Source: a virus
Taxonomy: Duplodnaviria > Caudoviricetes
Virus record (IMG/VR): IMGVR_UViG_3300020050_005097
Span: 1-64,000 of that record
Reading direction: 5' to 3' (one strand)
DNA length: 64,000 nucleotides
The position numbers were made by a program, and so were the translations under genes. How positions within the stretch are numbered: the stretch's first letter is position 1; each line of letters opens with the position of its first letter. The notes under the pieces were generated by a model. The model was not told the origin of the DNA. It saw only the letters and a list, made by a program, of their open reading frames with translations, and did no database searches. Of the stretch, positions 3,187 to 52,910 are shown piece by piece.

Positions 3187-3211
3187 TATATTAGCCCATG
3201 TTATTGCTGCG
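3187..3211 (-). promoter_or_regulatory. Conserved phage promoter motif copy 1 (heads VRR-NUC/Cas4/RNAP operon)
   Basis: CGCA GCAATA ACA TGGGC TAATATA. Confidence 0.7.
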
Positions 3212-3242
3212 ACTCTATACTTACTTTTGATTTCACCCCCAT

Positions 3243-3743
3243 TCAACCCTCTCTGTACCAATCAAACAGATGCCATGTTGGAAACACAGGAACCTTGTTC
3301 ACCAATGCCAACTTGATCTCGTAGAACAGTAGACCATTCGTAGTGGCCGCGCTAACAACGTTATCGTACAACAAACCAGTATGTCGATCCACAATTGGCC
3401 CAATGGTTACATACTCGTCAACAGTCTTGAACTGAGAAGTGTACTTCCAAGCAAACCAGGCCGGCCTCCACACCAGATTCTCAATGTGGTTGTTCTGTTG
3501 ATCACCATCCAAATTGATCGGAGAGTCAAAGATATCTGTTTGACCAGTAACAAACGCGCTTGCCACCAGAAGCTTCACCGACTTGGTATATTGTTTACCG
3601 TCCTTCATCAACCCAACCTTAGACATTCCTTGCATCGTACAGCTTTGTTTGACCAACCTTTCTCGAACGTCATTTCGGATGCGTCCGTGAGTGCTTACAG
3701 AGTACTTTGGAAAGCCAAGAATTTTGGCCCAAATTTCGTCCAT
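3243..3743 (-). CDS. NUMOD4 + degenerate HNH protein
   Basis: WAKILGFPKYSVSTHGRIRN (NUMOD4-like); INLDGDQQNNHIENLVW lacks the first His of the HNH motif. Confidence 0.65.
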   Translation of the reverse strand: MDEIWAKILGFPKYSVSTHGRIRNDVRERLVKQSCTMQGMSKVGLMKDGKQYTKSVKLLVASAFVTGQTDIFDSPINLDGDQQNNHIENLVWRPAWFAWKYTSQFKTVDEYVTIGPIVDRHTGLLYDNVVSAATTNGLLFYEIKLALVNKVPVFPTWHLFDWYREG

Positions 3744-3764
3744 TTTAGTCCTCAAATCTTTTCA

Positions 3765-4341
3765 AAAAAGTAAGTATAAAGGTCCTAAAAAATAGGGTAG
3801 GTCTATACTTACTTTTTGAACTTTTTGGCGATTTTGACAAAAACAAGACTTTGTCGAAAAACTTTCTATAAAATGTAGAGGTCTATACTTACTTTTTTCC
3901 GCGCGTATATAAGTAAGTATAGACCTCTGCAATTTTAAGAAAGTTTTTCACAAAAATCTTGGATTTGTCCAGAGCTCTGAAAAAAGTTCGAAAAGTAAGT
4001 ATAAGGATTTTCAAAACCGCATGTAGGATGGGTTCTGGAGGTCTATACTTACTTTCAGACTTTTTTCTTTTTTCTCGAATTTTTCACTTTTTTGTTCATT
4101 TTTTGTGAACTTTTTGAAAACACTACTTTTTGACCCTCGAAATCGACCCGTTTTGAGCACTTTTCAGCACGGTTTTGGCCCTCTACAAAGCCTCATAACC
4201 ACCCGATATCGACCCTCAAAACAGCCGATTTTCAGCGACATTTCAAAAAGTTCTCAAAAAGTGCTCAGATTTGTCCAAAACCGAAAAACGCGAAAAGTTC
4301 GAAAAGTAAGTATAGACCCCCTATAGTCTATACTTACTTTT
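3765..4341. repeat. AT-rich origin-like region with 8 iteron-like GTCTATACTTACTTT copies in both orientations and a ~60-bp inverted repeat
   Basis: Copies near 3767(r, degenerate), 3801, 3881, 3911(r), 3991(r, degenerate), 4041, 4303(r), 4326; arms ~3832-3893 and 3911-3972 are imperfect reverse complements; poly-A/T tracts; no credible ORF. Confidence 0.75.
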
Positions 4342-5582
4342 CATCCCCAATCTGCCTCGAAAATAGGCAGATTTTCATCCGCCCATTTACGCTCATTAAA
4401 CGTCTGTTTTACATTCAAAGAAGCACGTACTGCACGGTCCACAGGAGACTCTGAAACCAGTGAATAATAGTACAAATCTCTAAACGTAGACGTGAGTCTG
4501 TCGATCCTACCCTGTGACTGTTCGAACTTCTTATAGGAGTAAGTCAGGGAGTAGAACACCATTGCATCAGTCTCGATACAGTTCCAACCTTCAGCACCAG
4601 CAGTGTACTGCACAAGATATACCCAGTTGTCAGACTTAGGAATCTCTTGCTTGCGGTGACCATTCCACTCTGCAATAGAAGGCCACTTACTATCAGCACC
4701 ATTCATCTCTCCAACACCAACAAGATCAGACCACGTGTCGTTCAACTCACGCAGCATATCAAGTTCGTAGTTGTAGTTATAGAACACAATGAGCTTAGGG
4801 TGAATCTCCATCAACTCACGCAGAGCAATCAACCGAGATGGGTCGCCATACACGATCTTACGACACACCGCGAACAACTCTCCGGCTTCTCGAATGGGTC
4901 TATCCTCGAAGGGATTCCATCGATCTTTCCATGCGATGTTGAACAAGTCTATGTCGTAGAACACCTCGATCTGTTTGTGATGACGAGTAGCATCACTCAA
5001 GTACTCCATCTCAACGAGTACTTCTTTCTTCAACTTCTCGAGCTTGGCAACCCCCAGAAATCGTTCAATCTTAGGATATCTACTGAACGGCGCATAGACA
5101 ACATGCTCACGTTTGAACTGAGTTACGTTCTTGTAGAACCCGTTAGCGATGAACACCGGAACATAGTCCAGCCAAGTATCTCCGGGGGTTGCGCTCAAGA
5201 TAAGCCAAGCGTTTCCGTTCTTCACGATCTTCTGAAACGACTTGACCCAGGCTCCGTTACCTACAAGCCTCTGTTCGTCGAAGATGAAGAAGCTGTCTTT
5301 GACTTCCTCGTATTTACTAATATTGTTCCACGAGTCGATGTGTAACACACCGGCAACCGAGGTATCTTCCGTGAGTCCAATACCAAACTTCGCCGCGTCT
5401 CCTTGCCATTCGAGAGAGTCCCGTTTCTTGGCGGTGGTGATGACATAGATATCATCCAACATCTCCTTTTCCATGTAGTAGGCCAGAGCGACAATGGATT
5501 TACCGCTACCAACACCACCCCACAAGATCTTCCCGTTACTCAGTCGGTTCAGTACTTCCCTCTGGTGAGGCATCAGTTCCAT
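4341..5582 (-). CDS. SF2 DNA helicase
   Basis: GGVGSGKS Walker A, FIFDEQR, LSATPG, QYTAGAEGWN, QSQGRIDR. Confidence 0.85.
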   Translation of the reverse strand: MELMPHQREVLNRLSNGKILWGGVGSGKSIVALAYYMEKEMLDDIYVITTAKKRDSLEWQGDAAKFGIGLTEDTSVAGVLHIDSWNNISKYEEVKDSFFIFDEQRLVGNGAWVKSFQKIVKNGNAWLILSATPGDTWLDYVPVFIANGFYKNVTQFKREHVVYAPFSRYPKIERFLGVAKLEKLKKEVLVEMEYLSDATRHHKQIEVFYDIDLFNIAWKDRWNPFEDRPIREAGELFAVCRKIVYGDPSRLIALRELMEIHPKLIVFYNYNYELDMLRELNDTWSDLVGVGEMNGADSKWPSIAEWNGHRKQEIPKSDNWVYLVQYTAGAEGWNCIETDAMVFYSLTYSYKKFEQSQGRIDRLTSTFRDLYYYSLVSESPVDRAVRASLNVKQTFNERKWADENLPIFEADWG

Positions 5583-5820
5583 CGTTCGCCTCTCGTGTAA
5601 GAACGGTTGGGTCCATAATCAAATGCGCAGCAGCATTGCGTTGTTCAACACTATGAATACGAACCTCATTCCAACCGAACGTATGGTGAAAAAGGGCAAT
5701 CGCTTTGCCAACATCAAAAGTCACAACATGTGCGCTAACATTTCTTCGCCAGTTCTGTCCTTCTTTTGCTGGAAGCGACCCCTTCACTTCATAGATCCAC
5801 GGTCCATTGTATTTAGTCAT
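5536..5820 (-). CDS. Hypothetical protein
   Basis: ORF in operon, overlaps neighbours. Confidence 0.55.
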   Translation of the reverse strand: MTKYNGPWIYEVKGSLPAKEGQNWRRNVSAHVVTFDVGKAIALFHHTFGWNEVRIHSVEQRNAAAHLIMDPTVLTREANDGTDASPEGSTEPTE

Positions 5821-6166
5821 CGCACGTCTCCTCAGAGTTTCTTAGGGCATGTTCCAAACGAAGAATCAGCGGGTTACTATACGGAAACTCGGTGTAATCC
5901 GGGACTCCATAAAGGAACCCAAGACCAATACCGTTATCTCGGATCTGATTAGCAAGCCCAGATACCTCCAACAGTTCGAGAAGAACCTCATAGTCCTCTT
6001 CGTACTTAACCCTTTCTGAGATCAAACGTTTATTAAGTTGTCGAAGATCCCTTTCGGCATCAAGAACATCACTCTGAAGCCCTCCGATTTTCTGTCCCTT
6101 TGTGGTAAGAGCATCGAACTGCTTCTTAAGAGTTTCCCGGAGAATCTTTTCAGTTTCATCCATCAT
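5813..6166 (-). CDS. Hypothetical coiled-coil protein
   Basis: Operonic ORF, heptad-rich. Confidence 0.6.
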   Translation of the reverse strand: MMDETEKILRETLKKQFDALTTKGQKIGGLQSDVLDAERDLRQLNKRLISERVKYEEDYEVLLELLEVSGLANQIRDNGIGLGFLYGVPDYTEFPYSNPLILRLEHALRNSEETCDD

Positions 6167-6578
6167 TATCGGTTTCCTCCATTAGTAGTTGATATCCCAA
6201 AGTCATAGCCATCGCGAAGTCAATCTTATCAATTGACGGATTACGTTCAGCCCACTTAGCGAATTCAATCTCATCACGTGGTGGGTAATACGAAAACCAC
6301 TCATCCATTTCTTGCCTAGGACGGAAAGTGTGGATCCATCGTAGATTGTTGGTGAGTGGGTGAAGCACTGGTGCCAGCATCACACCAAACCCATCGTTGA
6401 GCTGATTACAAAGCCTATCGTCTTCCAAATGGATAGTACCAAGAACACCACCGCCATCAATCGTAGAAGTCAGCTTATAGGTACTAGTCCCAATAGACGT
6501 TTTGAGATTACGTAACTCAGCCTCAGCTTTCTCAGCCCGAGCCTGCCAATCAATTGGAGTTGGTTCACCCCATGGCAT
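6156..6578 (-). CDS. Hypothetical protein
   Basis: AGGAG RBS upstream, operonic. Confidence 0.6.
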   Translation of the reverse strand: MPWGEPTPIDWQARAEKAEAELRNLKTSIGTSTYKLTSTIDGGGVLGTIHLEDDRLCNQLNDGFGVMLAPVLHPLTNNLRWIHTFRPRQEMDEWFSYYPPRDEIEFAKWAERNPSIDKIDFAMAMTLGYQLLMEETDNDG

Positions 6579-6589
6579 ATGATTACTCC

Positions 6590-6838
6590 TTAATTAGGGA
6601 ACAGAATTGTATCCATCTTAAGCCACTTAGGTGGCGGACCATCAAGACGAAGCTCTGCTGGAGTTTGGTTTGATCCGTGGTCTTCTATGGTGTATTGAGT
6701 GTTCAACTCCCAGTAAGCCTCACAAACCTCTTTGAATTGTGATTCCGCTTCTTTACGACATCGTTTGCACCACCACTTATAGCCTTTGAAGAAGTGCTTC
6801 ATGCAAGCAGGCATCTTGAAGTATGGTAAAGAATCCAT
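6590..6838 (-). CDS. Hypothetical Cys-containing protein
   Basis: ATGA overlap with upstream stop; C-x2-H...C-x2-C. Confidence 0.55.
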   Translation of the reverse strand: MDSLPYFKMPACMKHFFKGYKWWCKRCRKEAESQFKEVCEAYWELNTQYTIEDHGSNQTPAELRLDGPPPKWLKMDTILFPN

Positions 6839-7761
6839 CAATCCTCCCAAACAGTAGACCAGTGAGTAACCTCTGCCCAACCACCACAATTGTCCACAGG
6901 ACACACCATTCCACTGTTATCCAGTATAGAAGTACCGTCGTTCGGGTATTTTTTAATACTGGTCTGGCCACAAGTTGCGCAGTAGTAGCTGAGATTTACC
7001 ACCGGTGCCTTAGGTTTGACATCAAATAGTTCTTCAGAGATCAAGTAGCTGAGATTTACCACCGGTGCCTTAGGTTTGACATCAAATAGTTCTTCAGAGA
7101 TCACTGCGTTCTTAACACCAGACCGTGGGTTATCAATGATCGGATACATAAACCGCAGTTGAGCATACGTGTTAGCACAATACCGACAGCTAATCCGGTC
7201 ATAGATCGTCCCGGACTTCGTGATGTTCACAACCTCTGACTCACAAGAACTGCATTTGTAAGTGATGTGCACTTCATCTTTAGGGACAGGCGCCGTGACT
7301 TTAAGTGGAGTACTATCAGTAATCTTAGGCATTGATGGAGGATTTAAGTCTGTCTTTAGTACGATCTTACCCAAATCAGGAACACGGTAAACGGCCTTAT
7401 TGGTCTTCGGCTTAAGCGCATCAGCAAAGACATCCGCCACAGCCTCAAACACTTCATCACCAAGCTCCTCAATCACAAGAGCTCGCAAGAGGATGAGGTA
7501 ATTGATATGATCGCCAATCTTCTCATCCCACATAGCAAGGTCTGCACACTCATCAGCCCGTAACAGGTCGTAGATTGACACAGTGTGCTTCACCATCATG
7601 CCACCAAGGGCCCGACGATTGCTAACACCTTCAGTGACAGCAGCCACCTTGAAGTTGTGAAGCTTGTCCTCGGTGGCGTATTCCTTACTCTTACTAGCCA
7701 GAACAGAGCGAGACTTCTCTACAGTCTCCTCGAAAATGCGATCAAACTCGTCGTGCAGCAT
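6838..7761 (-). CDS. Nucleotide-modification-associated (DUF1599/Nmad-like) N-terminal domain plus zinc ribbons
   Basis: Start reassigned to MLHDEFD (AAGGAGG RBS); SKSKEYATEDKLHNF...GMMVKHTVSI; CSSC/CRYC and CATC/CPVDNC pairs. Confidence 0.5.
   Translation of the reverse strand: MLHDEFDRIFEETVEKSRSVLASKSKEYATEDKLHNFKVAAVTEGVSNRRALGGMMVKHTVSIYDLLRADECADLAMWDEKIGDHINYLILLRALVIEELGDEVFEAVADVFADALKPKTNKAVYRVPDLGKIVLKTDLNPPSMPKITDSTPLKVTAPVPKDEVHITYKCSSCESEVVNITKSGTIYDRISCRYCANTYAQLRFMYPIIDNPRSGVKNAVISEELFDVKPKAPVVNLSYLISEELFDVKPKAPVVNLSYYCATCGQTSIKKYPNDGTSILDNSGMVCPVDNCGGWAEVTHWSTVWED
6984..7103. repeat. Perfect 60-bp tandem duplication (in frame, 20 aa)
   Basis: 6984-7043 identical to 7044-7103; protein ISEELFDVKPKAPVVNLSY twice. 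Confidence 0.97.
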
Positions 7762-8254
7762 TACGATACGCCTCCTTGTACGCGAACATGGGGTTACCTT
7801 CGGGGAGCATCCACATAAATTTATACCGGCCGGTAAGCGGATGACGCCCACCACATGCAGGACAAGCAATCCGCTCGGGGGTAGTGACTCTGAAGTTGTG
7901 ATACTCGCAGGCACCACACCTAACGCACATGTATAGTTGTTGAGTGTCGTGGTTCGTCGTCTTATACCCAGGCTCGGACTTCATCCAAAGTTTGCCGAAG
8001 ACTTCATCAACATAGACGGCGAACAAACCCGCGTCGTTCTTACAAACCCAATCGCCTTCTTCAGCAATGGTGTATGTATTATTTGTAGGTACCAATAATT
8101 TGCGAATATCATCTTCAACAAACGCACACGGCCCAGGCAATCCGTATGCCCCAACGAACTGTTGCATCTCAAGCACGTTGTCATGACGCAACTGTACAGC
8201 TTCAATTTCCTCTGGTCGTGGAATGAACTTTTGGCGCTTAAACAACATAGTCAT
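7742..8254 (-). CDS. Conserved phage protein (xKP..EAVQ family) with C-terminal zinc ribbon
   Basis: RPEEIEAVQL...AEEGDWVCK...VFGKLW; CVRC/CPAC. Confidence 0.55.
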   Translation of the reverse strand: MTMLFKRQKFIPRPEEIEAVQLRHDNVLEMQQFVGAYGLPGPCAFVEDDIRKLLVPTNNTYTIAEEGDWVCKNDAGLFAVYVDEVFGKLWMKSEPGYKTTNHDTQQLYMCVRCGACEYHNFRVTTPERIACPACGGRHPLTGRYKFMWMLPEGNPMFAYKEAYRNAARRV

Positions 8255-8503
8255 TAGGTCTCCTTAATTAATTCTCAGTAGTAGCAACGTGGACAGGCTT
8301 GCCAGGCACAAACCCATAGCAGATCAATTACAAACTTGACCATCAGGTTCTCCTAACAATTGGATAGCAGTAGTTAGGACATCCACCAACACCACAGATA
8401 ACCCTCTCTGGAAGTTGGTTTAGGAATACGAAATTGTTCATGTGCGGGGGTCGAACAATCGTTTTAGTGCTCTTACACTCAGGGCAAATATAAACCTGCT
8501 CCA

Positions 8504-8875
8504 TCAATCACCCTCCGTCTTGTCTTCGTCATACAATCGACGATGAACGGCTTGATACAACCGATAAACAGCAGCCTTGTTATCATCGGTTGGTTGAATA
8601 CGAAACTTGGCAAGAAACCTCTGGTAACCAAAATCCCCGTAAGACGATCGGTCATTGAAAATCGTGCTACACAGGCCGATCTCTACAAAAGCATCGATCT
8701 GTCGAACCATATCTGCATGTTGCGTTTCTAACTGGTTCTTATTCCGAGCAAGTTGAAGTTCCAAATGTGCAATTTCAGCTTCGGTTTTGATAACCTGCTC
8801 AACATAAGTAATCACGGTTGGGGTATTCTTCACCACGAATTTGCGGAGCTGCTCGGCAGCAATGGGGCTATCCAT
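8504..8875 (-). CDS. Hypothetical protein
   Basis: GGAGG RBS, coiled coil. Confidence 0.6.
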   Translation of the reverse strand: MDSPIAAEQLRKFVVKNTPTVITYVEQVIKTEAEIAHLELQLARNKNQLETQHADMVRQIDAFVEIGLCSTIFNDRSSYGDFGYQRFLAKFRIQPTDDNKAAVYRLYQAVHRRLYDEDKTEGD

Positions 8876-8953
8876 TAATCATCCTCCGGTAGTAGACCGA
8901 TCCAGATATAGAATCGCTCAAGTCGTTTAAGCCATCTGTTCCAGATCATTATG

Positions 8954-9232
8954 TCACCTCTTCAGTTTGTCGATCATCGCATCGAGACGTGCAAGTACTT
9001 CATCTTCGGCCTTCTTCATAGACGCTTCACTGGGCATGTTCCTACCCGTGTAATCAACACCAGCAGGAGCACGAAGATCTGTGTGAGGGCACCGAGCTCT
9101 TACATGAAACCACATCATGATAGACCCAGAGAATGTAACCTCCGCGTCACGACCCTTTGGCGTCTTCATCATACGCGTGTTTGACACATACCTGGTCTGC
9201 ATTTCAACTGGCAACTCGATTTGACCGGCCAT
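8954..9232 (-). CDS. Hypothetical protein
   Basis: AGGAG RBS. Confidence 0.6.
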   Translation of the reverse strand: MAGQIELPVEMQTRYVSNTRMMKTPKGRDAEVTFSGSIMMWFHVRARCPHTDLRAPAGVDYTGRNMPSEASMKKAEDEVLARLDAMIDKLKR

Positions 9233-9235
9233 TAA

Positions 9236-10285
9236 TTACTCCTTTGTATTATGAAGACTGGGCACATCATCCTTCTTCATCCAGTGGTTGTATTCCCAAA
9301 CGTTCTTACACAGATCACAAGGAATATAGTTTCTGATTTCAGCACCCTCCAACCAAGTCAAATCCTTTTTCGAACCACACTTCTCACAAGTGTAATGAAG
9401 AATCTTACGCTCAATCGGGGTCTTGATGACGTTTTCTTGTTTCTTAGACTCGAGCATATTAAACGAGTCTCCACCCCAAACAGCATCGTCGGGCTTGAAC
9501 ATAGTGCTTAACGCACAAACAGGACACCGAATACGTTCTGGGGTAACAGTGTTGTTAATAAGCGCCTTGGTCGAAGCACACAAGATACACTTGTAGAGAA
9601 CGGTCTCAAGCCCTTCCTGATACGGAACCATTTTCACGTCTTTGTAACGGATGACGTTGTTCCAAAGATCGTCCATTTTGGTGGGCTTCTCTTCAACGGT
9701 CTTGAACAAATCAGGACCACCCGCCTCGTTAAGAAGATCCATGATGTCATTGGAGCTAACAATCGGCTTGACCAGAACATTGTCCTCATAGTCCTCGTCG
9801 GCATACTTCTCAGGATCATCACCCTCCAGAATATCCAACGTCATACGCACGATGCTCTGGACCTCTTCGGTGTACTTCTCAAGAGATCCAGCCTCACCAG
9901 TGTCATACGCCCGACTCACGATGGATGCGTACTTGGTCTTCTCACTAACAATCCACTCCGCAATTGCTCGGTCAGTGGGGTGCGTTTCTGCCTTGAGCTT
10001 GACGCGCTGCACTGATGGAAGCACGCCCTTCTCAAATTCCTCCAGGACTCGAGCCGCTTTAGCATCCGCCGCGGCCTGAGTGTTCTGAATAATGTGCGGT
10101 TTAACCTCAGTAAACTCCAGAATACACGCCGAACTCGAATCCAATAGTTCGTTCGGAACACGCTTGACTAGGTATTCAACACCATTAGCCAAGTTATCGT
10201 TCAGCGTTTTATTATCGCTTCGGAAGTTTCCAATCCGCTCTAAAGCGAGACCAAGCGAATCATACACAAGGTAGTAAACAGTCAT
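9236..10285 (-). CDS. Hypothetical protein with two C-terminal zinc ribbons
   Basis: CILC/CPVC and CEKC/CDLC pairs; similar layout to the C-terminus of 6838..7761. Confidence 0.65.
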   Translation of the reverse strand: MTVYYLVYDSLGLALERIGNFRSDNKTLNDNLANGVEYLVKRVPNELLDSSSACILEFTEVKPHIIQNTQAAADAKAARVLEEFEKGVLPSVQRVKLKAETHPTDRAIAEWIVSEKTKYASIVSRAYDTGEAGSLEKYTEEVQSIVRMTLDILEGDDPEKYADEDYEDNVLVKPIVSSNDIMDLLNEAGGPDLFKTVEEKPTKMDDLWNNVIRYKDVKMVPYQEGLETVLYKCILCASTKALINNTVTPERIRCPVCALSTMFKPDDAVWGGDSFNMLESKKQENVIKTPIERKILHYTCEKCGSKKDLTWLEGAEIRNYIPCDLCKNVWEYNHWMKKDDVPSLHNTKE

Positions 10286-10761
10286 AGCTCTCCAATCGCT
10301 TGAATGATGTCGCGCTTAGCTTCAGCCAGGCACTCTTTGTAAATCTGATCGTATCGCTGCTTAGCGGCGTGCTTCAACTCAACAATCTCATGCCGAGCAA
10401 GATCCAACTCACGCTCGAGCTGTTCGACGGTCTTTGTCTTCTTGGCATAAGTGATCTGAATACCACGATCGTCTTCAGAAATGCTGGCGATTTGGTAGTC
10501 CGCGACAAGGTTCTTCGCCGAGATATCGACCGGAACCTTCTTAGGTGTTTCCTCGGCCGGGATTGGCGACAGCATAAATCGCTTAAGCTCTACTGGGTGT
10601 CCACGTCGATGCGATGCTCCATACATTGGGCAAAGTTCGTATTTAGCACCGGCTAGCAGCACATGGTTAAATTCATCATCAACCCGAATGGAACCGACGG
10701 TAAAACCGGGACCCACGGCATCATAAAGAATAACATCAACAATCTTTTCGTCATCCATCAC
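10282..10761 (-). CDS. Hypothetical protein
   Basis: ATGA-coupled in operon. Confidence 0.6.
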   Translation of the reverse strand: MMDDEKIVDVILYDAVGPGFTVGSIRVDDEFNHVLLAGAKYELCPMYGASHRRGHPVELKRFMLSPIPAEETPKKVPVDISAKNLVADYQIASISEDDRGIQITYAKKTKTVEQLERELDLARHEIVELKHAAKQRYDQIYKECLAEAKRDIIQAIGEL

Positions 10762-11171
10762 AAACTCTCCATAAACTCGATTAGTTCGGCCTTAGCCTTG
10801 GCACGTTCTTCTTCGCGGATCTTTCGTTCCCATGCTTCGCGGTCTTCTTGTCGTTCTTTACGCGCATGTTCGGCAGATAGACCTCCACACCAATGCCGCG
10901 CGAGTCTAAGTAGATCTCGCTCAAGCATCTCTTGATACTCAACCATCATCGTATCGAATGCTTCGCCACTCATACCTGACGAAACCTTCGCTGGCTTCAA
11001 CAACACGTGTTGCAGATGACCAGTATTAGTATTTATACTCGGAGCAAGCATATAGGGAACGCCGTTGGCGATCTGCTCCTCCATATACTGAGTCAGCTCA
11101 ATAAACCCCTGCTGATAGTCCGTCGTTCGGCCTTCGTTTTCAGTGGGCTTAACCAAATCAAACTTCTTCAT
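10758..11171 (-). CDS. Hypothetical protein
   Basis: AAGGAG RBS. Confidence 0.6.
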   Translation of the reverse strand: MKKFDLVKPTENEGRTTDYQQGFIELTQYMEEQIANGVPYMLAPSINTNTGHLQHVLLKPAKVSSGMSGEAFDTMMVEYQEMLERDLLRLARHWCGGLSAEHARKERQEDREAWERKIREEERAKAKAELIEFMESL

Positions 11172-11180
11172 TAAGACTCC

Positions 11181-11594
11181 TTAAAACGGGTAGATTATTT
11201 GGACGGGCTTCTTCATTTGCTGAGCATAGCGAACGGTAGCCCACGTACCAGATCGCAGCTCTTCTTCAGAACTCTTAGGACAAGCCAGCAACAGATCGCA
11301 ATCGTCGACGATCTTTTTATTCCGGGTCAAATATGGCTCCGGGGGATACGCCTCGTCATACAATCCATGAGCTCGCTTGGGTGTGTGGCCGTTATGATCA
11401 CTACCAGGCCGTACACGGACAATATAACCATGCTGTCCCGCAAGGCGTCCGAACTGAGCATCAGCTCCAATGCAATCACCATGCACGGCAAGCGCGAAGT
11501 TCTCACCAGCCAACGCATGCAGCTTGCTGTTCACTCGCTTGTACTGAAGGACGGTCATTCCCTCTTGTGTTCCTGTGAACCCTACTACAAACAT
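11181..11594 (-). CDS. SLOG (DprA/Smf/YpsA-like) nucleotide-binding protein
   Basis: VGFTGTQEGMT, HGDCIGADA, RNKKIVDDCDLLLA, SGTWATVRYA. Confidence 0.65.
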   Translation of the reverse strand: MFVVGFTGTQEGMTVLQYKRVNSKLHALAGENFALAVHGDCIGADAQFGRLAGQHGYIVRVRPGSDHNGHTPKRAHGLYDEAYPPEPYLTRNKKIVDDCDLLLACPKSSEEELRSGTWATVRYAQQMKKPVQIIYPF

Positions 11595-11602
11595 GGGGCT
11601 CC

Positions 11603-11884
11603 CTATTCGTTAGCGATCTTCAGCAACACATCACCATGACAAGGCAGGGGTGCGCACGAGCATAGAAGATCTTTGTCTTTGAGAATGGTCTTGATTTACT
11701 GCTTGAACGCCGGGTTATCCTTGACGAGCTCGGCAAAACGCTCAACAGCATCGCCACGAGTCTCAACATGCTCGGTTCCAGGAAGAGACAGGTGACTAAA
11801 CGGATTACCCCATGGAGTACCCCGTCCGATATATACCGCGTCTTTCGGAACGTTCTTGTGGTGTCGGTTGTAAACCTTTGGCAT
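11603..11884 (-). pseudogene. DUF4326-like gene interrupted by an in-frame TAA at 11696-11698
   Basis: VYIGRGTPWGNPF...PAFKQ*IKTILKDKDLLCSCAPLPCHGDVLLKIANE; the family-typical C-terminus continues in frame to TAG at 11603. Confidence 0.75.
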
Positions 11885-11891
11885 GAGACCC

Positions 11892-11984
11892 CTAACTCCA
11901 GTATGCGATGAAGATATACACCGCCGAAATCAGAATCAACCACAAGACAACTACGAAAATATAGGCCTTAGTATCTCTCTTCAT
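11892..11984 (-). CDS. Small membrane protein (30 aa)
   Basis: MKRDTKAYIFVVVLWLILISAVYIFIAYWS, hand-translated. Confidence 0.55.
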   Translation of the reverse strand: MKRDTKAYIFVVVLWLILISAVYIFIAYWS

Positions 11985-12352
11985 CGGCGCTCATCCGGCT
12001 CGACAAACCGCTCGAGAATGGAGTTCACAAACGGTGCCACAAGAGTAGCGTTCTCCGCCGTGCGACGACCACCAAGTAGCGTCAGGATCGTGTCGTGGCT
12101 ATCCGTGGTGGAGAACTTCCACCCAGAAATACTGATCAAGTCAATCAGAGACTCGAATTCGACAGCGTCCTTCTTGGCATCAGCAGCATACAGGTCTTCA
12201 GCAACCTTGAGCTTCTGCTGAGCCTCGAGCAGTTCCTTGCGTCGGGTAACCACCTTGTCATGCTTATGCATCATCTCAACGCGACGCTCAAGAATCGGAT
12301 TGACGTTTTCCTTGATCATTCCGCGGATCTTGTTGCGGGTTTCTTCATTCAT
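11981..12352 (-). CDS. Hypothetical coiled-coil protein
   Basis: CCTAGGAG RBS, C/G-ending codons. Confidence 0.65.
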   Translation of the reverse strand: MNEETRNKIRGMIKENVNPILERRVEMMHKHDKVVTRRKELLEAQQKLKVAEDLYAADAKKDAVEFESLIDLISISGWKFSTTDSHDTILTLLGGRRTAENATLVAPFVNSILERFVEPDERR

Positions 12353-12369
12353 TTGTGTCTCCTAGGTTG

Positions 12370-12408
12370 GAAAAAGAAGAGGAAATACCGTGTTACTTTG
12401 GTATCTCC
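12370..12408 (-). terminator. Intrinsic terminator (homologous to 47049-47083)
   Basis: Stem ATACC/GGTAT, loop gtgttacttt, followed by TCTTCTTTTT on minus strand. Confidence 0.7.
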
Positions 12409-12417
12409 CCCTGGAAT

Positions 12418-12630
12418 TTACTTCTTGGCGAGCGCGGATGTTACTGCTGGGTCGTTCATGCTGAACCGAAGTGTGGTGATGACAGCCGACACATTTCCCA
12501 GCGTGAGGTGCAACTCGTCCAAAACCTTCTCGGTGAGAGGGGTTTCGAATCGGTTCAGCAACAGCACGGCGAGATGGTCGATGTCTTCTTGCAGTTCGTT
12601 CAGCCGGTTGACGGCATAGTAAGGGTCCAT
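12418..12630 (-). CDS. Cassette gene, hypothetical 70 aa
   Basis: Between promoter copy 2 and terminator; AAGGAGG RBS. Confidence 0.75.
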   Translation of the reverse strand: MDPYYAVNRLNELQEDIDHLAVLLLNRFETPLTEKVLDELHLTLGNVSAVITTLRFSMNDPAVTSALAKK

Positions 12631-12650
12631 GGTGGGCCTCCTTGTTGTTC

Positions 12651-12675
12651 CATCTTAGCCCATGTAAAACCTGCG
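12651..12675 (-). promoter_or_regulatory. Promoter motif copy 2
   Basis: CGCA GGTTTT ACA TGGGC TAAGATG. Confidence 0.75.
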
Positions 12676-12714
12676 AGAAGAACATGACCCTTGTGTTACG
12701 GGTCAGAGGTTCTC
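12675..12714 (-). terminator. Intrinsic terminator, AGAAC...GTTCT family
   Basis: gagaagaac-atgaccc-loop-gggtca-gag-gttctc. Confidence 0.65.
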
Positions 12715-12727
12715 AGAACGTACTTCT

Positions 12728-12901
12728 CTACTTCTTGTCCATGAGCTTCACGAGCTCGGGGTTCTTCTTGATGGCCTCCACCATGGTGTGGTAGAACGAC
12801 TTGTCGATGGCGGTCAGCAGCATTCGCGCGAGCACGAAGCCGATGCCGAACTTGAAGCCGTTCTTGACGGTGAAGATGTTCTTCGAAGTGGTCTCGATCA
12901 T
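12728..12901 (-). CDS. Cassette gene, 57 aa, hydrophobic segment
   Basis: MIETTSKNIFTVKNGFKFGIGFVLARMLLTAIDKSFYHTMVEAIKKNPELVKLMDKK; below track cutoff. Confidence 0.75.
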   Translation of the reverse strand: MIETTSKNIFTVKNGFKFGIGFVLARMLLTAIDKSFYHTMVEAIKKNPELVKLMDKK

Positions 12902-12934
12902 GGGGACTCCTGGGAGTTAGATGGATGAGTGTTC

Positions 12935-12959
12935 CATCTTAGGGCTTGTTAATTGTGCG
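12935..12959 (-). promoter_or_regulatory. Promoter motif copy 3
   Basis: CGCA CAATTA ACA AGCCC TAAGATG. Confidence 0.75.
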
Positions 12960-13130: not shown

Positions 13131-13156
13131 GGGTTTCTCCTCTCTGTGGTAGGTCC

Positions 13157-13181
13157 TATTACAGGCCATGTTATTACTGCG
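13157..13181 (-). promoter_or_regulatory. Promoter motif copy 4
   Basis: CGCA GTAATA ACA TGGCC TGTAATA. Confidence 0.75.
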
Positions 13182-13446: not shown

Positions 13447-13471
13447 TATTATACCCCTTGTTATCCTTGCG
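13447..13471 (-). promoter_or_regulatory. Promoter motif copy 5
   Basis: CGCA AGGATA ACA AGGGG TATAATA. Confidence 0.75.
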
Positions 13472-13681: not shown

Positions 13682-13706
13682 CATTATACCCCATGTTAAA
13701 TATGCG
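13682..13706 (-). promoter_or_regulatory. Promoter motif copy 6
   Basis: CGCA TATTTA ACA TGGGG TATAATG. Confidence 0.75.
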
Positions 13707-13984: not shown

Positions 13985-14009
13985 CATTATACCACATGTT
14001 AAATATGCG
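13985..14009 (-). promoter_or_regulatory. Promoter motif copy 7
   Basis: CGCA TATTTA ACA TGTGG TATAATG. Confidence 0.75.
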
Positions 14010-14332: not shown

Positions 14333-14357
14333 TATTATATGCCTTGTGAATCGTGCG
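14333..14357 (-). promoter_or_regulatory. Promoter motif copy 8
   Basis: CGCA CGATTC ACA AGGCA TATAATA. Confidence 0.75.
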
Positions 14358-14666: not shown

Positions 14667-14691
14667 TATTATACACCATGTGAATCCTGCG
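14667..14691 (-). promoter_or_regulatory. Promoter motif copy 9
   Basis: CGCA GGATTC ACA TGGTG TATAATA. Confidence 0.75.
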
Positions 14692-15025: not shown

Positions 15026-15050
15026 TATTATACCCCTCGTTATTCCTGCG
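15026..15050 (-). promoter_or_regulatory. Promoter motif copy 11
   Basis: CGCA GGAATA ACG AGGGG TATAATA. Confidence 0.7.
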
Positions 15051-21397: not shown

Positions 21398-21422
21398 TAT
21401 TATAGGAGTTGTTATTCTTGCT
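21398..21422 (-). promoter_or_regulatory. Promoter motif copy 12 (AGCA variant)
   Basis: AGCA AGAATA ACA ACTCC TATAATA. Confidence 0.65.
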
Positions 21423-23106: not shown

Positions 23107-23131
23107 CATTATAGCGCTTGTTATTGCTGCG
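23107..23131 (-). promoter_or_regulatory. Promoter motif copy 13
   Basis: CGCA GCAATA ACA AGCGC TATAATG. Confidence 0.75.
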
Positions 23132-35788: not shown

Positions 35789-35813
35789 CATTATAGGGCT
35801 TGTTATTTTTGCG
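35789..35813 (-). promoter_or_regulatory. Promoter motif copy 14
   Basis: CGCA AAAATA ACA AGCCC TATAATG. Confidence 0.75.
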
Positions 35814-40215: not shown

Positions 40216-43200
40216 TTACGACACAAACCTATGGAAGGGTCCATAGTACTCGATTGCAGCCTCAGCATCTCGGGCCAACTTCTCGAAATATGAGTAGTCG
40301 ATGAAGTCGCCGTAAGGCTCTTCACGCTTCTCCGCCATCTCACGTTCGATCCATCGGTAACCCTTGGTGCCAGTAACCGCGTACTTCTTGTCTTCCTTGA
40401 TACGCCAGAGGAATGCGCCACCCTTAAGCACAGGGATGAAACTCCCCGTGCGACCGACATGCACAAACTCCGTCACCTTTCGCAATTCACTCTCGTTGAA
40501 GTCGAGATACATTGCTCCCTGCTGAACGCTTCGCGTCTCACAAAGATCGTCGAACTCAATCTCTTCGTTGGTGAACAGCTTCTTGAACACGTACGGATGC
40601 TGGAACTGAGCGCCTACCGCAGTCCACTTATCGCCCTGACGAGCAATATAAACTGCGTCATTGACGAGACAGAACTTGTCATACGTCCCTTCGTGCTCGA
40701 ATTCGTATCCGTACTTCTGGCCGAAGTCCATGACAAACTGGATGATCTCCGGCGTAGCGTCTGGAATCTTGATCGAGTCCGTCTTGATGTGCGCAACGGT
40801 AAATCCTTTCTCCTGCACAGCGTGCTTGAGGTCTACCATGAATAAAGCACCGCGTTTGGCCACGATGTTGTCGATGTTCCTGTTGTCCTTGAACGGAGTT
40901 GGGAACTTCGCACTAGTGAGGCCATAAACGCTGTTGATTACAATCTTTAGCGCATACGCCAGATCGTCGGCCACATCTTCACCAGCGGCCAAAAACGGTT
41001 GCAGTCGACCACCAAGTAGCTTGCGGGCTCGGTCGAACTCCTTACGCTTAACCGCCATACGAGCGTCCTTGAGCTCGGAGAACCGTTCTGTGTAGGGTCC
41101 GAAGAGATTGAGGAGCTCAATGCTGGTCGGATGCATGGAGGCAACGTCCAGAAGCGCAACATTCTCATATACGCCCGGCTCGGCGTAAACGTACCCGCCT
41201 TCTCCTGTGACTTCTCCACGATAAGTACTTTCCTTTCCGTCGAACTTGTACCCGGGGAATTCCTCGGACAAGTCTGTGTAAATGAATTTCTTCTGAGGCT
41301 CCTTGTCGGAACCAAAGATGATCTTTGCCGTGTGGTTCTGAGTGGTGTGATTAACACTGAGACCAGACAACTCGGCCAACATCTCACGAGCGACGAAGTC
41401 CTGCTTACGGTTCTCGAACACCGCCTCTAACGCATGGACATCGTTCGCACAGTAATCGATGACTCGAGGGATCATTTCCTCAGGAACAGGCGAGTCCCAA
41501 TCAAGATCAAGCTCCATGTGATGGATACCAAGCTCAATTTCGAACTTCTTGAGGCTCTGCTTCTTCGACGAGAAGTCGTACGCATCTGTGTAGGAAAGGT
41601 TGTACGCCTCTCCGAACAGCGCATTGTGATTGCCGCCGATGATCTTCTGACTAAGCCGGTAGATCTCCTCATTCGTGTAGCCCAAGAAACGAGCGTACAG
41701 AATATGGTTATCGTACTTGCGATTATTGAACCCGACCAACTTGAGCGCGAACAAAGGCTCGATCTCATGTGGTTCTGGGTTGATCATTCGGACGACGTCA
41801 GCATCCCCAGCATACTTCCAGCAGATCAGAAGCAGGTTGGGATATACCTCAATGTCGAAGAACACGATCGGGTCGTCAGATTTAACAGGGCCCTCAACCT
41901 CAAGCGGCATGAACTCCTGCCCGATGAACTGCATCTTCTGGACCACCTTGATGGCCGTATCGGACTGATGAGTACTTCGAGCGGCAAAGGTTAGGATCGT
42001 ACCACGAAGATCTCGCACGTCGTAAGCCATTCCGGACTCATACGCTTCTTCCAAGATCTTATGGATGAAATCAACTGACGATTTGGTCCCAGGGTGTACT
42101 TCTTTCCTGAGGTTCTTGTCAATTAGTGCTCGAAGTCCCTTTTCACTTTGGATTGTCTTCGTACCAAGCATGGACTTCTCTTTCTTTGGCAACCCACTTG
42201 TAAGGGTCGCAACCTCTAGGTTGTTACATCTGGTCAATTTCCTCCGGAGGGAACTGTCCCCAAGCAAAGTTTTAACCTCGATACCGTCTGCGTAAAGAGC
42301 AGCAAGCTCCTTGACGTTACCGTGGTAAATATAGTGCAGATGAACGCCCGCGCCGCTTTTGCTAAGCTCGGTGTATGTCGGGGGAAACTGTGATGCTGCC
42401 CAACAGTTCATCTCTAGACTCTTATCGCCATTCTCATCAACAAGGTCGAAGTCGATGACGATGTGTTGCTCGGGTACCTTCACGAAGTGCAACTTTGAAG
42501 TGTCGATATCCTTTAGTGTAGTTGTCACATTAGCCCACTTAAACCTGGGACTACCATCAGTCTTTGTGTACTGAGCTGGTTGATCCGCATAAAGACGGTC
42601 GAAGTGCGACTCAATATCATCGACAGCAATTTGGTATGTCGTGTCCGGCTTGAATGGATCCGGTGCTGTCAATTTCTTGAATTTGGAGTAGTAGCTTCGA
42701 ACAAGTACCCCATCGACTTCTGCCTTTTCTTCGAACTTGTCGAAGTAATTACGTAGCTCCTCTCGGAATTTGTATTGGGGAAGCAGACGCTCGATTCCAG
42801 TCTCTGCTCCGAATTCCTTGTAGAGTTCATACGCTCGTTTAAGGGAGACACCACCCTTTTCCTTAAACTCTTCGTAGTAATACTCCACATAGTTGTAGAA
42901 CACATCGGTTTGAAGCATCATCTCGAGAGGGCGGTAAGAGTTGTAGTGGGTCTTACCCATTTCCCGATAGCGCTCGCGGCAATGATGTGCAATTGCTCCT
43001 AGTTCGAAGTCAACCATCCCCATCAGTGCGTGGTACCGATCCTCGTCGATCTTCACACCCGTGGGATGCACGTCGATAAGGCGTCGGATAATACCAGACT
43101 TGGCGTCACTGATCTTGACTGGCTGGTTCGTACCCATAAACAGAAACGCATTGACCCGAGCGGTGTATCCGGGCTTGTACTTCTCGTTCATCGGCATGTC

Positions 43201-43941
43201 TTCGTGAGAGATGATCGAATTAAGCTTCGTATTGTCATCAATCTTCGACAGGTCCCCATCATGCTGAATGGCCACGAGGGGGTTGCTCTTGAACGCTTCA
43301 GTAGCAAATGCGTTGTTACCACTACCCAGAGCCTTAGCATCGAAGGTCGTCGTATAGCCCTCGAACAGCTTCTGAATAATGTTGATCACCGTGGACTTGC
43401 CACTACCCGCAGGTCCATAAAACACGAGGAACTTCTGGATCTTCTTTGCCTCACCGGCAACGACGGCCCCAATAGCCCACTCGATCTTCGCACGTTCCTC
43501 CGGAGAATATAGAACGCTAAGGAGTTCATCCCAAGCATCAATAGGGCCCTCTTCGAGAGAATATGGAAGACGCTTGCTTGCGTAATCTGTTTTCTTGACT
43601 TCGGTGTTAGCGAAAACGAGCGACTCGTCTAGCGTATGGTAGTTGTCACTGATGTTCTGAAGGAACTGCCGGAACGTAGTCCAGATCTTCGTGTTGAACG
43701 ACCGAAGGTTCTGAATTTGATAAAGGTTCCCGCATTCGTCATTATACCGGTGAAGGTCTTCGTCCACCAGGCGTTGAACATCGTACTCGTCACTAGACCA
43801 TAGACCAGCTTCTTCGTCCCAGACAGCATAGAACGATCGTCCTCGACTCATCAAGTCTTTGGACCTACCGATGTTCCAGTCTGGGTAAAGCACAGGGGGG
43901 CCATCGCGTCTTTCTTTCACTCTAATTTCATAGAAATCCAC
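40216..43941 (-). CDS. SF3 helicase - AEP primase - 3'-5' exonuclease - family B DNA polymerase fusion
   Basis: GPAGSGKS (SF3); VIDFD and SKSGAGVHLHY (AEP); FFDIEVYPN and GFNNRKYD (exo); LDVASMHPT, KIVINSVYG, IKTDS (PolB motifs A/B/C). Confidence 0.85.
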   Translation of the reverse strand: MDFYEIRVKERRDGPPVLYPDWNIGRSKDLMSRGRSFYAVWDEEAGLWSSDEYDVQRLVDEDLHRYNDECGNLYQIQNLRSFNTKIWTTFRQFLQNISDNYHTLDESLVFANTEVKKTDYASKRLPYSLEEGPIDAWDELLSVLYSPEERAKIEWAIGAVVAGEAKKIQKFLVFYGPAGSGKSTVINIIQKLFEGYTTTFDAKALGSGNNAFATEAFKSNPLVAIQHDGDLSKIDDNTKLNSIISHEDMPMNEKYKPGYTARVNAFLFMGTNQPVKISDAKSGIIRRLIDVHPTGVKIDEDRYHALMGMVDFELGAIAHHCRERYREMGKTHYNSYRPLEMMLQTDVFYNYVEYYYEEFKEKGGVSLKRAYELYKEFGAETGIERLLPQYKFREELRNYFDKFEEKAEVDGVLVRSYYSKFKKLTAPDPFKPDTTYQIAVDDIESHFDRLYADQPAQYTKTDGSPRFKWANVTTTLKDIDTSKLHFVKVPEQHIVIDFDLVDENGDKSLEMNCWAASQFPPTYTELSKSGAGVHLHYIYHGNVKELAALYADGIEVKTLLGDSSLRRKLTRCNNLEVATLTSGLPKKEKSMLGTKTIQSEKGLRALIDKNLRKEVHPGTKSSVDFIHKILEEAYESGMAYDVRDLRGTILTFAARSTHQSDTAIKVVQKMQFIGQEFMPLEVEGPVKSDDPIVFFDIEVYPNLLLICWKYAGDADVVRMINPEPHEIEPLFALKLVGFNNRKYDNHILYARFLGYTNEEIYRLSQKIIGGNHNALFGEAYNLSYTDAYDFSSKKQSLKKFEIELGIHHMELDLDWDSPVPEEMIPRVIDYCANDVHALEAVFENRKQDFVAREMLAELSGLSVNHTTQNHTAKIIFGSDKEPQKKFIYTDLSEEFPGYKFDGKESTYRGEVTGEGGYVYAEPGVYENVALLDVASMHPTSIELLNLFGPYTERFSELKDARMAVKRKEFDRARKLLGGRLQPFLAAGEDVADDLAYALKIVINSVYGLTSAKFPTPFKDNRNIDNIVAKRGALFMVDLKHAVQEKGFTVAHIKTDSIKIPDATPEIIQFVMDFGQKYGYEFEHEGTYDKFCLVNDAVYIARQGDKWTAVGAQFQHPYVFKKLFTNEEIEFDDLCETRSVQQGAMYLDFNESELRKVTEFVHVGRTGSFIPVLKGGAFLWRIKEDKKYAVTGTKGYRWIEREMAEKREEPYGDFIDYSYFEKLARDAEAAIEYYGPFHRFVS

Positions 43942-47409: not shown

Positions 47410-47434
47410 CATTATAGGGCGTGTTATTATTGCG
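47410..47434 (-). promoter_or_regulatory. Promoter motif copy 15
   Basis: CGCA ATAATA ACA CGCCC TATAATG. Confidence 0.75.
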
Positions 47435-48456: not shown

Positions 48457-48481
48457 CATTACAGGGCCTGTAAATCCTGCG
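48457..48481 (-). promoter_or_regulatory. Promoter motif copy 16
   Basis: CGCA GGATTT ACA GGCCC TGTAATG. Confidence 0.75.
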
Positions 48482-49847: not shown

Positions 49848-49872
49848 CATCTTAGGGCGTGTTTTTTCTGCG
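49848..49872 (-). promoter_or_regulatory. Promoter motif copy 17
   Basis: CGCA GAAAAA ACA CGCCC TAAGATG. Confidence 0.75.
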
Positions 49873-51099: not shown

Positions 51100-51124
51100 C
51101 ACTCTAGCCCTTGTTATTTCTGCG
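51100..51124 (-). promoter_or_regulatory. Promoter motif copy 18
   Basis: CGCA GAAATA ACA AGGGC TAGAGTG. Confidence 0.7.
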
Positions 51125-51947: not shown

Positions 51948-51972
51948 CATTATAGGGCCTGTTATTTCTGCG
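51948..51972 (-). promoter_or_regulatory. Promoter motif copy 19
   Basis: CGCA GAAATA ACA GGCCC TATAATG. Confidence 0.75.
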
Positions 51973-52190: not shown

Positions 52191-52215
52191 TATTATACGG
52201 GTTGTTATTGTTGCG
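52191..52215 (-). promoter_or_regulatory. Promoter motif copy 20
   Basis: CGCA ACAATA ACA ACCCG TATAATA. Confidence 0.75.
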
Positions 52216-52262
52216 ACACCTGCGAAATACCCTCAATTTACCAGAGACCCCTCTAATTCTTC

Positions 52263-52326
52263 TTCTAAGCGATTTAATGCTCCGGCGAGTATAATCACCC
52301 GGCTTTGGTATTAAAGTCGCTTAGAA
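52263..52326. repeat. 18/19-bp inverted repeat in AT-rich intergenic block
   Basis: ttctaagcgatttaatgc ... gtattaaagtcgcttagaa. Confidence 0.8.
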
Positions 52327-52517
52327 CGCAAATGAGAGGGTAGTTTTTTGAATTGTTTGTCTAGAAAACCCACCCGGGGAATTTTGCGGTCCAATTTTGT
52401 AGAAAAGCTTTGAATAAAGGCGGTTTATTGTAGTATAAAGACTAGTATATTAAGATTTACTGCCATTTTGACTGTTTGCTGGAAAAAAAGATAGTGCATG
52501 TTAATCGAACAACGAAA

Positions 52518-52560
52518 CATGTATGCCGTGTAAGTGTTTTAAGTTTACACGGCATACATG
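52518..52560 (-). terminator. 16-bp perfect hairpin, probable terminator
   Basis: catgtatgccgtgtaa/ttacacggcatacatg. Confidence 0.7.
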
Positions 52561-52578
52561 CGGTTCGCTATGTCGAGG

Positions 52579-52863
52579 TCAGGTCTTTGAGGTCTTCGTG
52601 ATGATTCCGAACGCCTTCGACACGAGCACGTGGCTGTGCTCATACGCGACGATGACAAGCACCTGCGCGAGGGTTCCGCCGACGATCAGCCAGGTATCGG
52701 CACTGGGTCGATTCGAGCGCTTGGCGCTTTTGATCAACTCCAGTTCCTTCAACTGGTGAACGAGGGCTTTGGCCTCGGGTGAGTGCGAGTCAACGGCTCG
52801 CATTTCGCTGTAGATGCGTGCAATCGCGTCGTCGACGTCCGAGTTCTTCTTTCGAATACTCAA
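52579..52863 (-). CDS. Cassette gene, 94 aa, C-terminal TM
   Basis: AGAAAGGAG RBS, TTG start; WLIVGGTLAQVLVIVAY. Confidence 0.75.
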   Translation of the reverse strand: MSIRKKNSDVDDAIARIYSEMRAVDSHSPEAKALVHQLKELELIKSAKRSNRPSADTWLIVGGTLAQVLVIVAYEHSHVLVSKAFGIITKTSKT

Positions 52864-52885
52864 GACTGTCTCCTTTCTATAGGGT

Positions 52886-52910
52886 CATTATAGGCCATGT
52901 TTTTCCTGCG
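52886..52910 (-). promoter_or_regulatory. Promoter motif copy 21
   Basis: CGCA GGAAAA ACA TGGCC TATAATG. Confidence 0.75.

Follow-up and report, generated by a model that had tools for sequence, protein, structure and literature searches.

A 64,000-nucleotide (nt) stretch of a virus of the class Caudoviricetes (positions 1 to 64,000 of the IMG/VR record IMGVR_UViG_3300020050_005097; hereafter, the window) carries 21 copies of a 25-nt element with the architecture CGCA-N6-ACA-N5-TRNRRT plus a purine. The copies are likely (probability roughly 0.65, judged from sequence) to be promoters of the phage's own single-chain two-barrel RNA polymerase (PHROG 4291, the family of Lactococcus phage 1706 orf75), and not of the host sigma-A holoenzyme. 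The phage polymerase is favoured because the motif travels only with PHROG 4291, departs from the rules of sigma-A promoters in two lineages, and has no other conserved DNA-binding candidate for its reader. The element is a motif of rigid spacing and fixed strand and position that is conserved across genomes and restricted to polymerase-bearing phages.

The pattern CGCANNNNNNACANNNNNTRNRRT (CGCA-N6-ACA-N5-TRNRRT) had 18 exact matches in the window, all on the minus strand, whereas shuffled sequences gave 0.07 on average and never more than 1. Allowing one mismatch added the copies at 3188 (hexamer TAATAT), 15027 (ACG for ACA), and 21399 (AGCA for CGCA), along with three unrelated chance matches (1.86 expected). 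The 25th base was a purine in 21/21 copies. The initial annotation of this DNA had listed 21 copies at invariant spacing on the coding strand, and all of them were recovered in this way; its coordinates are one below those of the pattern matches as it counted the 25th base in, and the spans given below follow its numbering. A weight matrix built from the copies scored them at 29.6–38.5 bits, the rest of the coding strand at no more than 6, and the best site on the opposite strand at 9.5. The scores are bimodal with no intermediate-scoring copies, i.e., the copies form a discrete class and are not the tail of a distribution.

The spacing is rigid. Pooled over ten genomes, 76 sites had the N6/N5 arrangement and none had any other total spacing. 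The bases of both spacers vary freely across genomes while the boxes stay conserved; selection therefore acts on the boxes, which are more than the product of recent duplication. In the pooled profile of the ten genomes, the most conserved base is the C of ACA, and within the hexamer the T at position 3 (1.8 bits) is more conserved than the A at position 2 (1.2 bits).

All 21 copies are located on the coding (minus) strand. They either fall in the gaps between called genes or run into the upstream gene by no more than its last 11 nt. No copy was found in the structural module, as had been reported. The distance from the hexamer to the start codon is mostly 22–36 nt in the window phage. Terminator-like hairpins are abundant in the 12.0–15.4 kb array of copies (14 vs. 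2.9 expected) and several are directly upstream of copies; the layout of the array is terminator, promoter, short leader, and small gene, repeated. That the copies function as promoters is supported by their position and strand, the upstream terminators, the RNA contigs found just downstream of them, and the tRNA that starts 9 nt after a hexamer in two relatives, Rhodococcus phage ReqiPepy6 and Lactococcus phage P078.

Contigs from two sludge metatranscriptome runs (X15 and X16; two studies from the same year, possibly one campaign) and two DNA-like runs were compared with positions 2001–22000 of the window (20 kb). The latter (X1 and X3) are labelled RNA-Seq and served as bridging controls only. 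All 16 RNA contigs from X15 and X16 lie directly downstream of a copy, and none includes a hexamer. They begin 10–25 nt downstream of nine copies, with upper ends at 12630/12637 (hexamer end at 12652), 12913/12920 (12936), 13135 (13158), 13419/13438 (13448), 13961/13953 (13986), 14314/14316 (14334), 14651/14644 (14668), 21385 (21399), and 3163 (3188). Their lower ends are identical in both runs at 12723, 13749, and 14058. The DNA-like contigs bridge the places where the RNA contigs break, so the breaks were not caused by repeats. The copies at 13683, 14802, and 15027 and the stretches at 3.3–12.4 and 14.7–21.1 kb have no RNA contig, which is evidence neither of silence nor of freedom from DNA carry-over. 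Taken together, the RNA contigs give a weak hint of transcript boundaries and are silent on which enzyme made the RNA.

Homologues of the polymerase were detected in at least 250 phage records, including those of Arthrobacter (n = 95), Gordonia (n = 55), Streptomyces (n = 54), Lactococcus (n = 13), Rhodococcus (n = 4), and Microbacterium (n = 4) phages, among others. We examined 12 polymerase-bearing relatives with hosts in the Actinobacteria and Firmicutes, and all 12 had the motif architecture at the same fixed spacing. They are ReqiPepy6 (Rhodococcus), LibertyBell and Scap1 (Streptomyces), Kenosha (Gordonia), Circum and Paella (Arthrobacter), Camille (Microbacterium), Pippin15 (Curtobacterium), an oral siphovirus contig, 1706 and P078 (Lactococcus), and FP_oengus (Faecalibacterium). 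A motif scan over the full genome and its relatives had been proposed with the initial annotation. It found no copy in the rest of the record (12.3 kb of 76,307 bp) and, with genome-specific matrices for the 13 genomes (window plus relatives), 159 sites, every one of them on the coding strand. The proteins of these motif-bearing relatives are merely 35–60% identical.

The closest match in organization is ReqiPepy6, whose genome size and gene order are the same as those of the window phage and which has 16 exact copies of the pattern, all on the coding strand and in equivalent places, including one before the endonuclease-exonuclease-polymerase operon. The Streptomyces, Gordonia, Arthrobacter, Microbacterium, and Curtobacterium phages and the oral siphovirus contig share the architecture. 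In the Firmicute phages, it takes the forms CACA-tGTTTT-ACA-N5-TATAGT-AGAAAGAAGG (1706), TTTA-N2-TTTT-ACA-TACCC-TATAAT-GAAAGG (P078), and CGCG-AAAAAn-nCA-N5-CTTTAT-GGAAGG (FP_oengus). A reading of TTTACA as a -35 box with a -10 element further downstream was rejected, as no consistent hexamer was seen by eye at 16–19 bp. The variants of the first box track the polymerase tree: CGCA belongs to the group of the window phage with LibertyBell, Scap1, ReqiPepy6, and Kenosha (support 98/94), CGCG to earlier branches and FP_oengus, and CACA and TTTA to the Lactococcus clade.

To the extent that the database allows, the motif is confined to phages with the polymerase. A BLAST search of 50,697 phage records with a 44-nt Kenosha copy matched 860 places in 150 records, i.e., those of Gordonia (n = 55), Streptomyces (n = 53), Arthrobacter (n = 28), Lactococcus (n = 8), Rhodococcus (n = 4), and Microbacterium (n = 2) phages. 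Compared at the genus level, these genera are those of the polymerase carriers, with nearly equal counts, and no match was found in other actinophage groups among these records. A loose form of the pattern had 0–1 chance matches in five polymerase-free phages (of R. equi, Streptomyces, L. lactis, G. terrae, and F. prausnitzii) and 3–23 sites in four of five carriers tested; the fifth, P078, was missed owing to its first box, TTTA.

The polymerase gene (2..2329, minus strand) matches PHROG 4291 with E = 0 over profile positions 7–778 of 909, and has a weak match to the Pfam RdRP family. It is cut by the contig end and lacks its last ~130 codons. We considered that the record might be circularly permuted and rejected this, as joining the contig ends to complete the polymerase gave a stop after 5 codons; the record is thus truncated. 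Upstream of the polymerase gene, family searches identified a Cas4-like exonuclease (2329–2889) and a VRR-Nuc-type endonuclease (2834–3181), both on the minus strand and predicted to be co-transcribed with the polymerase from the copy at 3188. This agrees with the earlier statement that the first copy heads the operon of the RNA polymerase-like gene. The polymerase, both nucleases, the helicase, and the DNA polymerase are present in 12/12 relatives. In full-length polymerases of relatives, N- and C-terminal helix-turn-helix (HTH) domains match sigma-70 region 4 families above the Pfam cut-offs, e.g., Sigma70_r4_2 (8.8e-8) and Sigma70_r4 (2.1e-6) in 1706 and Sigma70_r4_2 (5.4e-8) in FP_oengus. 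These findings agree with a previous sequence-based prediction of the polymerase family (Koert et al., bioRxiv 10.1101/842583). Judged by such domain matches, no conserved protein linked to transcription other than the polymerase has known DNA-binding domains.

Of the 12 copies in Lactococcus phage 1706, 8 have a Shine-Dalgarno sequence (AGAAAGAAGGT or AAGGAGG) 3–6 nt after the hexamer and a start codon 17–20 nt after it. Across 1706, P078, and FP_oengus, the Shine-Dalgarno sequence begins 1–6 nt and the start codon lies 12–20 nt after the hexamer. An RNA start 6–8 nt downstream would remove the 1706 ribosome-binding site, which argues for a probable RNA start at the 3' edge of the hexamer, on the conserved purines that follow it directly; a start at these purines fits the purine at the 25th base of every window copy. 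The expectation in the initial annotation, that RNA starts 6–8 nt downstream of a -10-like hexamer, is therefore probably wrong, and to discard the promoters if no start is found there would be to reject true ones. With a start at its edge, the hexamer would not be a -10 element but a melting block at -6 to -1, of the kind seen in T7-type promoters. The RNA contigs in the window, which begin at least 10 nt downstream of the hexamers, are compatible with either start position. Which enzyme reads the motif, where its RNA starts, and when it is used are points that we infer from the genomes compared here.

We consider it unlikely that the copies are strong "-10 only" promoters of host sigma-A, with TATAAT at -12 to -7, help from RbpA/CarD in Actinobacteria, and upstream boxes that tune strength or are relics of cassette duplication. 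Such a reading requires no injection of a polymerase, and actinobacterial sigma-A uses promoters without a -35 box, which are common in Actinobacteria. The motif of a related Gordonia phage, Vardy, was published as a possible sigma-70 -10 signal (PMC9671010). It is hard to see on this reading why the upstream boxes are kept across phages of hosts from two phyla while the intervening bases vary, and why the motif goes unused in phages that infect these hosts and lack the polymerase. In a sigma-A -10 hexamer, position 2 is almost always A and position 6 almost always T. The essential A of position 2 is missing from FP_oengus (present at 0/14 sites) and mostly from Pippin15 (3/8); Scap1 has it at 4/6 sites. 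Canonical -35 boxes in the 12.0–15.4 kb array were not above chance (2 weak matches vs. 3.0 expected from shuffles), which bears out the earlier remark that TTGACA is lacking and led us to reject a canonical sigma-70 geometry. As for a TG extension, the bases at -15/-14 are G/C-rich in the window copies, and both TG and a -35 box are lacking from those of the Lactococcus phages. The ribosome-binding site of 1706 would, as said, be cut by a start at the distance typical of sigma-A. Dual recognition, with host polymerase also reading the motif in Actinobacteria, is possible.

For phages of two host phyla to share a reader, that reader would have to be either a host component found universally or a phage protein that is conserved. 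The second way of reading the copies put forward in the initial annotation takes them as host-polymerase promoters that need a phage activator. Such an activator, or a sigma appropriator, would bind the CGCA and ACA boxes in place of the -35 contact, like T4 MotA/AsiA. A conserved box near -30 could stand in for the -35 box, and the window phage encodes a tandem-HTH protein (18974–19651, 226 amino acids) with two N-terminal HTHs (Sigma70_r4 2.3e-8, HTH_23 7.9e-10), as well as a protein with a weaker, C-terminal HTH (31827–32408). Neither has a homologue in any of the 12 motif-bearing relatives, so the phage's own HTH proteins were rejected as activators. A Pfam scan (E ≤ 0.001) of 103 proteins, with two DNA-polymerase-sized enzymes left out, found no sigma or HTH family in the other non-structural proteins and no MotA or AsiA family. 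Of the two readings given in that annotation, promoters of the phage RNA polymerase are thus favoured, as the motif occurs only with PHROG 4291, and a MotA-like scheme has become improbable. We give very little credence to the idea that the repeats are mainly recombination sites for the gain and loss of cassettes, like integron attC, and not transcription signals. Variant contigs in a wastewater run do join 14675 to 14810 and 12958 to 13708, with joints in or at the edge of copies and one or three cassettes removed, so that in the natural population cassettes are also gained and lost through breaks at the promoter repeats. Recombination is to be expected of any dispersed repeat, however, and the Pfam scan found no recombinase gene; the fixed orientation, the fixed distance to the start codon, the upstream terminators, the downstream RNA contigs, and the tRNAs 9 nt after a hexamer fit a promoter.

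Several observations weigh against assigning the copies to the phage polymerase. The hexamers of the window phage mostly fit TANNNT (18/21) and many are perfect TATAAT (13/21), so host polymerase could read many copies. The argument on the RNA start comes from Firmicute relatives, and the ribosome-binding sites of the window phage, at least 9 nt downstream, fit either start. The polymerase of the window phage itself has sub-threshold N-terminal HTH matches only, and its C-terminus is missing. Its gene sits behind its own type of promoter, which would require that the enzyme is packaged in the virion or that host polymerase reads some copies weakly; the sole packaging evidence here is a GenBank note that calls the 1706 homologue a structural protein. 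All motif-bearing phages are related, and the co-occurrence of motif and polymerase may partly reflect shared descent. Because of this relatedness, the link is one of co-inheritance and not of independent replication.

We propose that the phage polymerase would read its promoters through the sigma-region-4-like HTH modules at its N and C ends. The modules would contact the CGC(A/G) and ACA boxes, which lie ten bp apart on one helix face, the A/T-rich hexamer would serve as the melting region, and RNA would start at the purines directly after it, placing the boxes at about -24 to -21, -14 to -12, and -6 to -1. The promoters would drive self-contained mini-cassettes, each with a promoter, short leader, small gene, and terminator, and also the replication operon and the polymerase's own operon. 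The polymerase would arrive with the virion, or host polymerase would read some copies weakly. The matching of two fused HTHs to two boxes is a simple model, and still a model. A bolder version, to which we would give somewhat less than an even chance, is a self-sufficient machine in which a virion-delivered polymerase with two fused HTHs reads the boxes, melts TATAAT, starts at its 3' edge, and runs the early/middle programme without host polymerase throughout an Actinobacteria/Firmicutes phage supercluster.

The element itself has been published for one relative, where it was interpreted differently. The genome announcement of Gordonia phage Vardy (cluster DJ) reported a 50-bp intergenic motif in five copies, with a "sigma-70 -10" and the comment that it "may regulate gene expression" (Henson et al. 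2022, PMC9671010). Vardy carries the polymerase, and its motif is the same element; the cluster-mate Kenosha has ~10 copies of CGCA-N6-ACA-N5-TATAAT-GAGACCCCTACGAAAG in the region of small membrane-protein genes. That paper dealt with one phage and drew no link to a phage polymerase, to the upstream boxes, or to a spread across phyla. The transcribed GAGACCCCTAC part of the DJ motif is degenerate in the window phage, and the downstream leader is weakly shared. In the literature that could be reached, including a search for the string TATAATGAGAC, we found no paper that assigns a promoter to a PHROG 4291 polymerase or links the motif to it, and an earlier description is possible.

Promoters private to a phage have already been characterized for the T7-like, N4, jumbo-phage, crAss-like, and P23-45 polymerases. 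The present case has in common with the T7-like and P23-45 systems a predicted RNA polymerase of the phage's own, a long and rigid motif in many copies on one strand, and co-occurrence of motif and polymerase. The T7, T3, and SP6 promoters are rigid, ~23–30 bp long, and have upstream specificity bases, a TATA-type melting block that abuts +1, and a purine-rich start. The geometry proposed here would be alike, whereas those enzymes have a Pol-I-like right-hand fold and the present one an unrelated two-barrel fold. The closest worked-out analogue is Thermus phage P23-45, also a siphovirus, with two single-chain two-barrel polymerases (gp96 in the virion and gp64 outside it) and private motifs that are conserved ahead of early genes and missing in relatives without the enzyme (PMC10770324). 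The polymerases are barely similar in sequence, one of the P23-45 motifs is AT-rich and the other GC-rich, and start sites, ChIP, and enzyme activity were measured there, whereas the system of the window phage is known from sequence alone. T4 middle promoters (a MotA box and a sigma-70 -10 element, with AsiA) resemble the motif in that a TATAAT-like hexamer is preceded by a conserved box near -30 in place of the -35 hexamer; they differ in that no MotA/AsiA homologue or conserved activator was found here, in the second box at -20, and in hosts that span two phyla. With sigma-A (sigma-70) promoters the motif shares TATAAT, and it differs from them in the lack of a -35 box, two extra boxes, the absence of A at position 2 in some lineages, and a likely start at the hexamer edge. 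In the Streptomyces phages Scap1 and LibertyBell, the reverse complement of the CCCTATAGTGAG version of the motif equals the T7 promoter core CTCACTATAGGG, pointing away from the genes. With the wrong strand and a different polymerase fold, this match is probably a coincidence; T7-promoter primers or T7 polymerase could cross-react with DNA of the Scap1/LibertyBell type.

The window phage is a ReqiPepy6-like siphovirus with 49% G + C, and its sequence was found in runs from wastewater/activated sludge. All genes are on the minus strand according to a crude gene map and family searches, so the copies are given below from high to low coordinates. The structural genes, with the tape measure gene at 56145–60785, come first in transcription order and extend down to 52914. 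The first copy (52886..52910) follows directly after the last tail-module gene (52914–53276), and seven copies lie between 52887 and 47411 with one to four small genes after each. These include 52191..52215 and 51948..51972 (both TATAAT), 51100..51124 (TAGAGT; 11 nt of overlap with the end of the upstream gene), 49848..49872 (TAAGAT), 48457..48481 (TGTAAT), and 47410..47434, which heads the long replication operon through a primase-polymerase gene (40216–43941). Single copies are found at 35790 (35789..35813; TATAAT, then a leader of ~100 nt), 23108 (23107..23131; TATAAT, then a leader of ~240 nt), and 21399 (21398..21422; AGCA instead of CGCA, TATAAT), the last with a gene for 88 amino acids 22 nt downstream and an X15 RNA contig at 21127–21385. 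The copies at 51101, 49849, 35790, and 23108 are followed by 100–240 nt without a convincing gene led by a Shine-Dalgarno sequence, and may drive small non-coding RNAs.

The second array has eleven copies between 15027 and 12652. The copy at 15026..15050 (TATAAT) has ACG instead of ACA. A variant contig joins 14801..14825 (TGTAAT) to 14667..14691 (TATAAT) copy to copy, and the latter is followed by RNA contigs at 14417–14651 and 14356–14644. Further TATAAT copies are 14333..14357 (terminator hairpin upstream at 14397–14382; RNA contigs 14058–14314 and 14058–14316), 13985..14009 (hairpin 14043–14024; RNA contigs 13749–13961 and 13749–13953), 13682..13706 (hairpin 13735–13720), and 13447..13471, where the X16 RNA contig 13228–13438 starts 10 nt past the hexamer. 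The remainder are 13157..13181 (TGTAAT; X15 RNA contig 12981–13135), 12935..12959 (TAAGAT; hairpin 12986–12970; RNA contigs 12723–12913 and 12723–12920), and 12651..12675 (TAAGAT), with a gene for 70 amino acids 22 nt downstream and RNA contigs that reach up to 12630 (X15) and 12637 (X16). Past this array comes an operon through the helicase gene (4341–5582), then a field of AT-rich repeats, and then the one-mismatch copy 3187..3211 (CGCAGCAATAACATGGGCTAATAT+a, TAATAT) that heads the endonuclease-exonuclease-polymerase operon, with X16 RNA contigs at 3013–3163 and 2691–2841.

The repeat field, between the helicase gene and the 3188 copy (3214–4344), has about nine copies, in both orientations, of the 16–17-nt AT-rich repeat AAAAGTAAGTATAGAC, which flank an HNH endonuclease gene (3243–3743); one iteron-like repeat ends 2 nt upstream of the CGCA of that copy. 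The field is a possible replication origin, with the repeats as iterons, or else a possible operator field that controls the polymerase operon. A second repeat, (C/T)AATTCACCTAAC(T/A)AAGGAG, is located on the minus strand at 35707, 31544, 28891, 18377, 18003, and 17352, in each case 5–7 nt ahead of a start codon. Its appearance is that of an extended ribosome-binding or start-associated sequence, not of a promoter, and none of its occurrences coincides with a promoter copy. Just downstream of the 21399 copy, a protein encoded at 20661–21038 has a cREC_REC domain (Pfam 3.9e-12) of a defence-related family, and proteins of the 24–53 kb region include Pfam matches to Tad3 (a Thoeris inhibitor, 1.1e-28) and Fic/DOC (1.9e-9), i.e., defence-related accessory genes. 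The C-terminal half of the tandem-HTH protein at 18974–19651 is Cys/His-rich and matches HNH and HTH PHROGs. Two tRNA genes are encoded on the coding strand, tRNA-Leu(taa) at 18465–18549 and tRNA-Lys(ttt) at 23240–23314, neither directly behind a promoter copy.

Sequenced phages with the PHROG 4291 enzyme number at least 250, and their hosts include Arthrobacter, Gordonia, Streptomyces, Rhodococcus, Lactococcus, and bacteria of the gut and mouth. A ~27-bp promoter with lineage-specific variants makes it directly testable whether this enzyme transcribes DNA and how it finds promoters without a sigma factor. If the assignment is right, it would change the annotation of hundreds of SEA-PHAGES genomes, which list the enzyme as "HTH DNA-binding protein" or "RNA-dependent RNA polymerase", and the enzyme and its ~27-bp promoter would be a new orthogonal expression pair, a compact system for high-GC Gram-positive hosts. 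It would also explain the arrays of strongly expressed mini-cassettes in the window phage.

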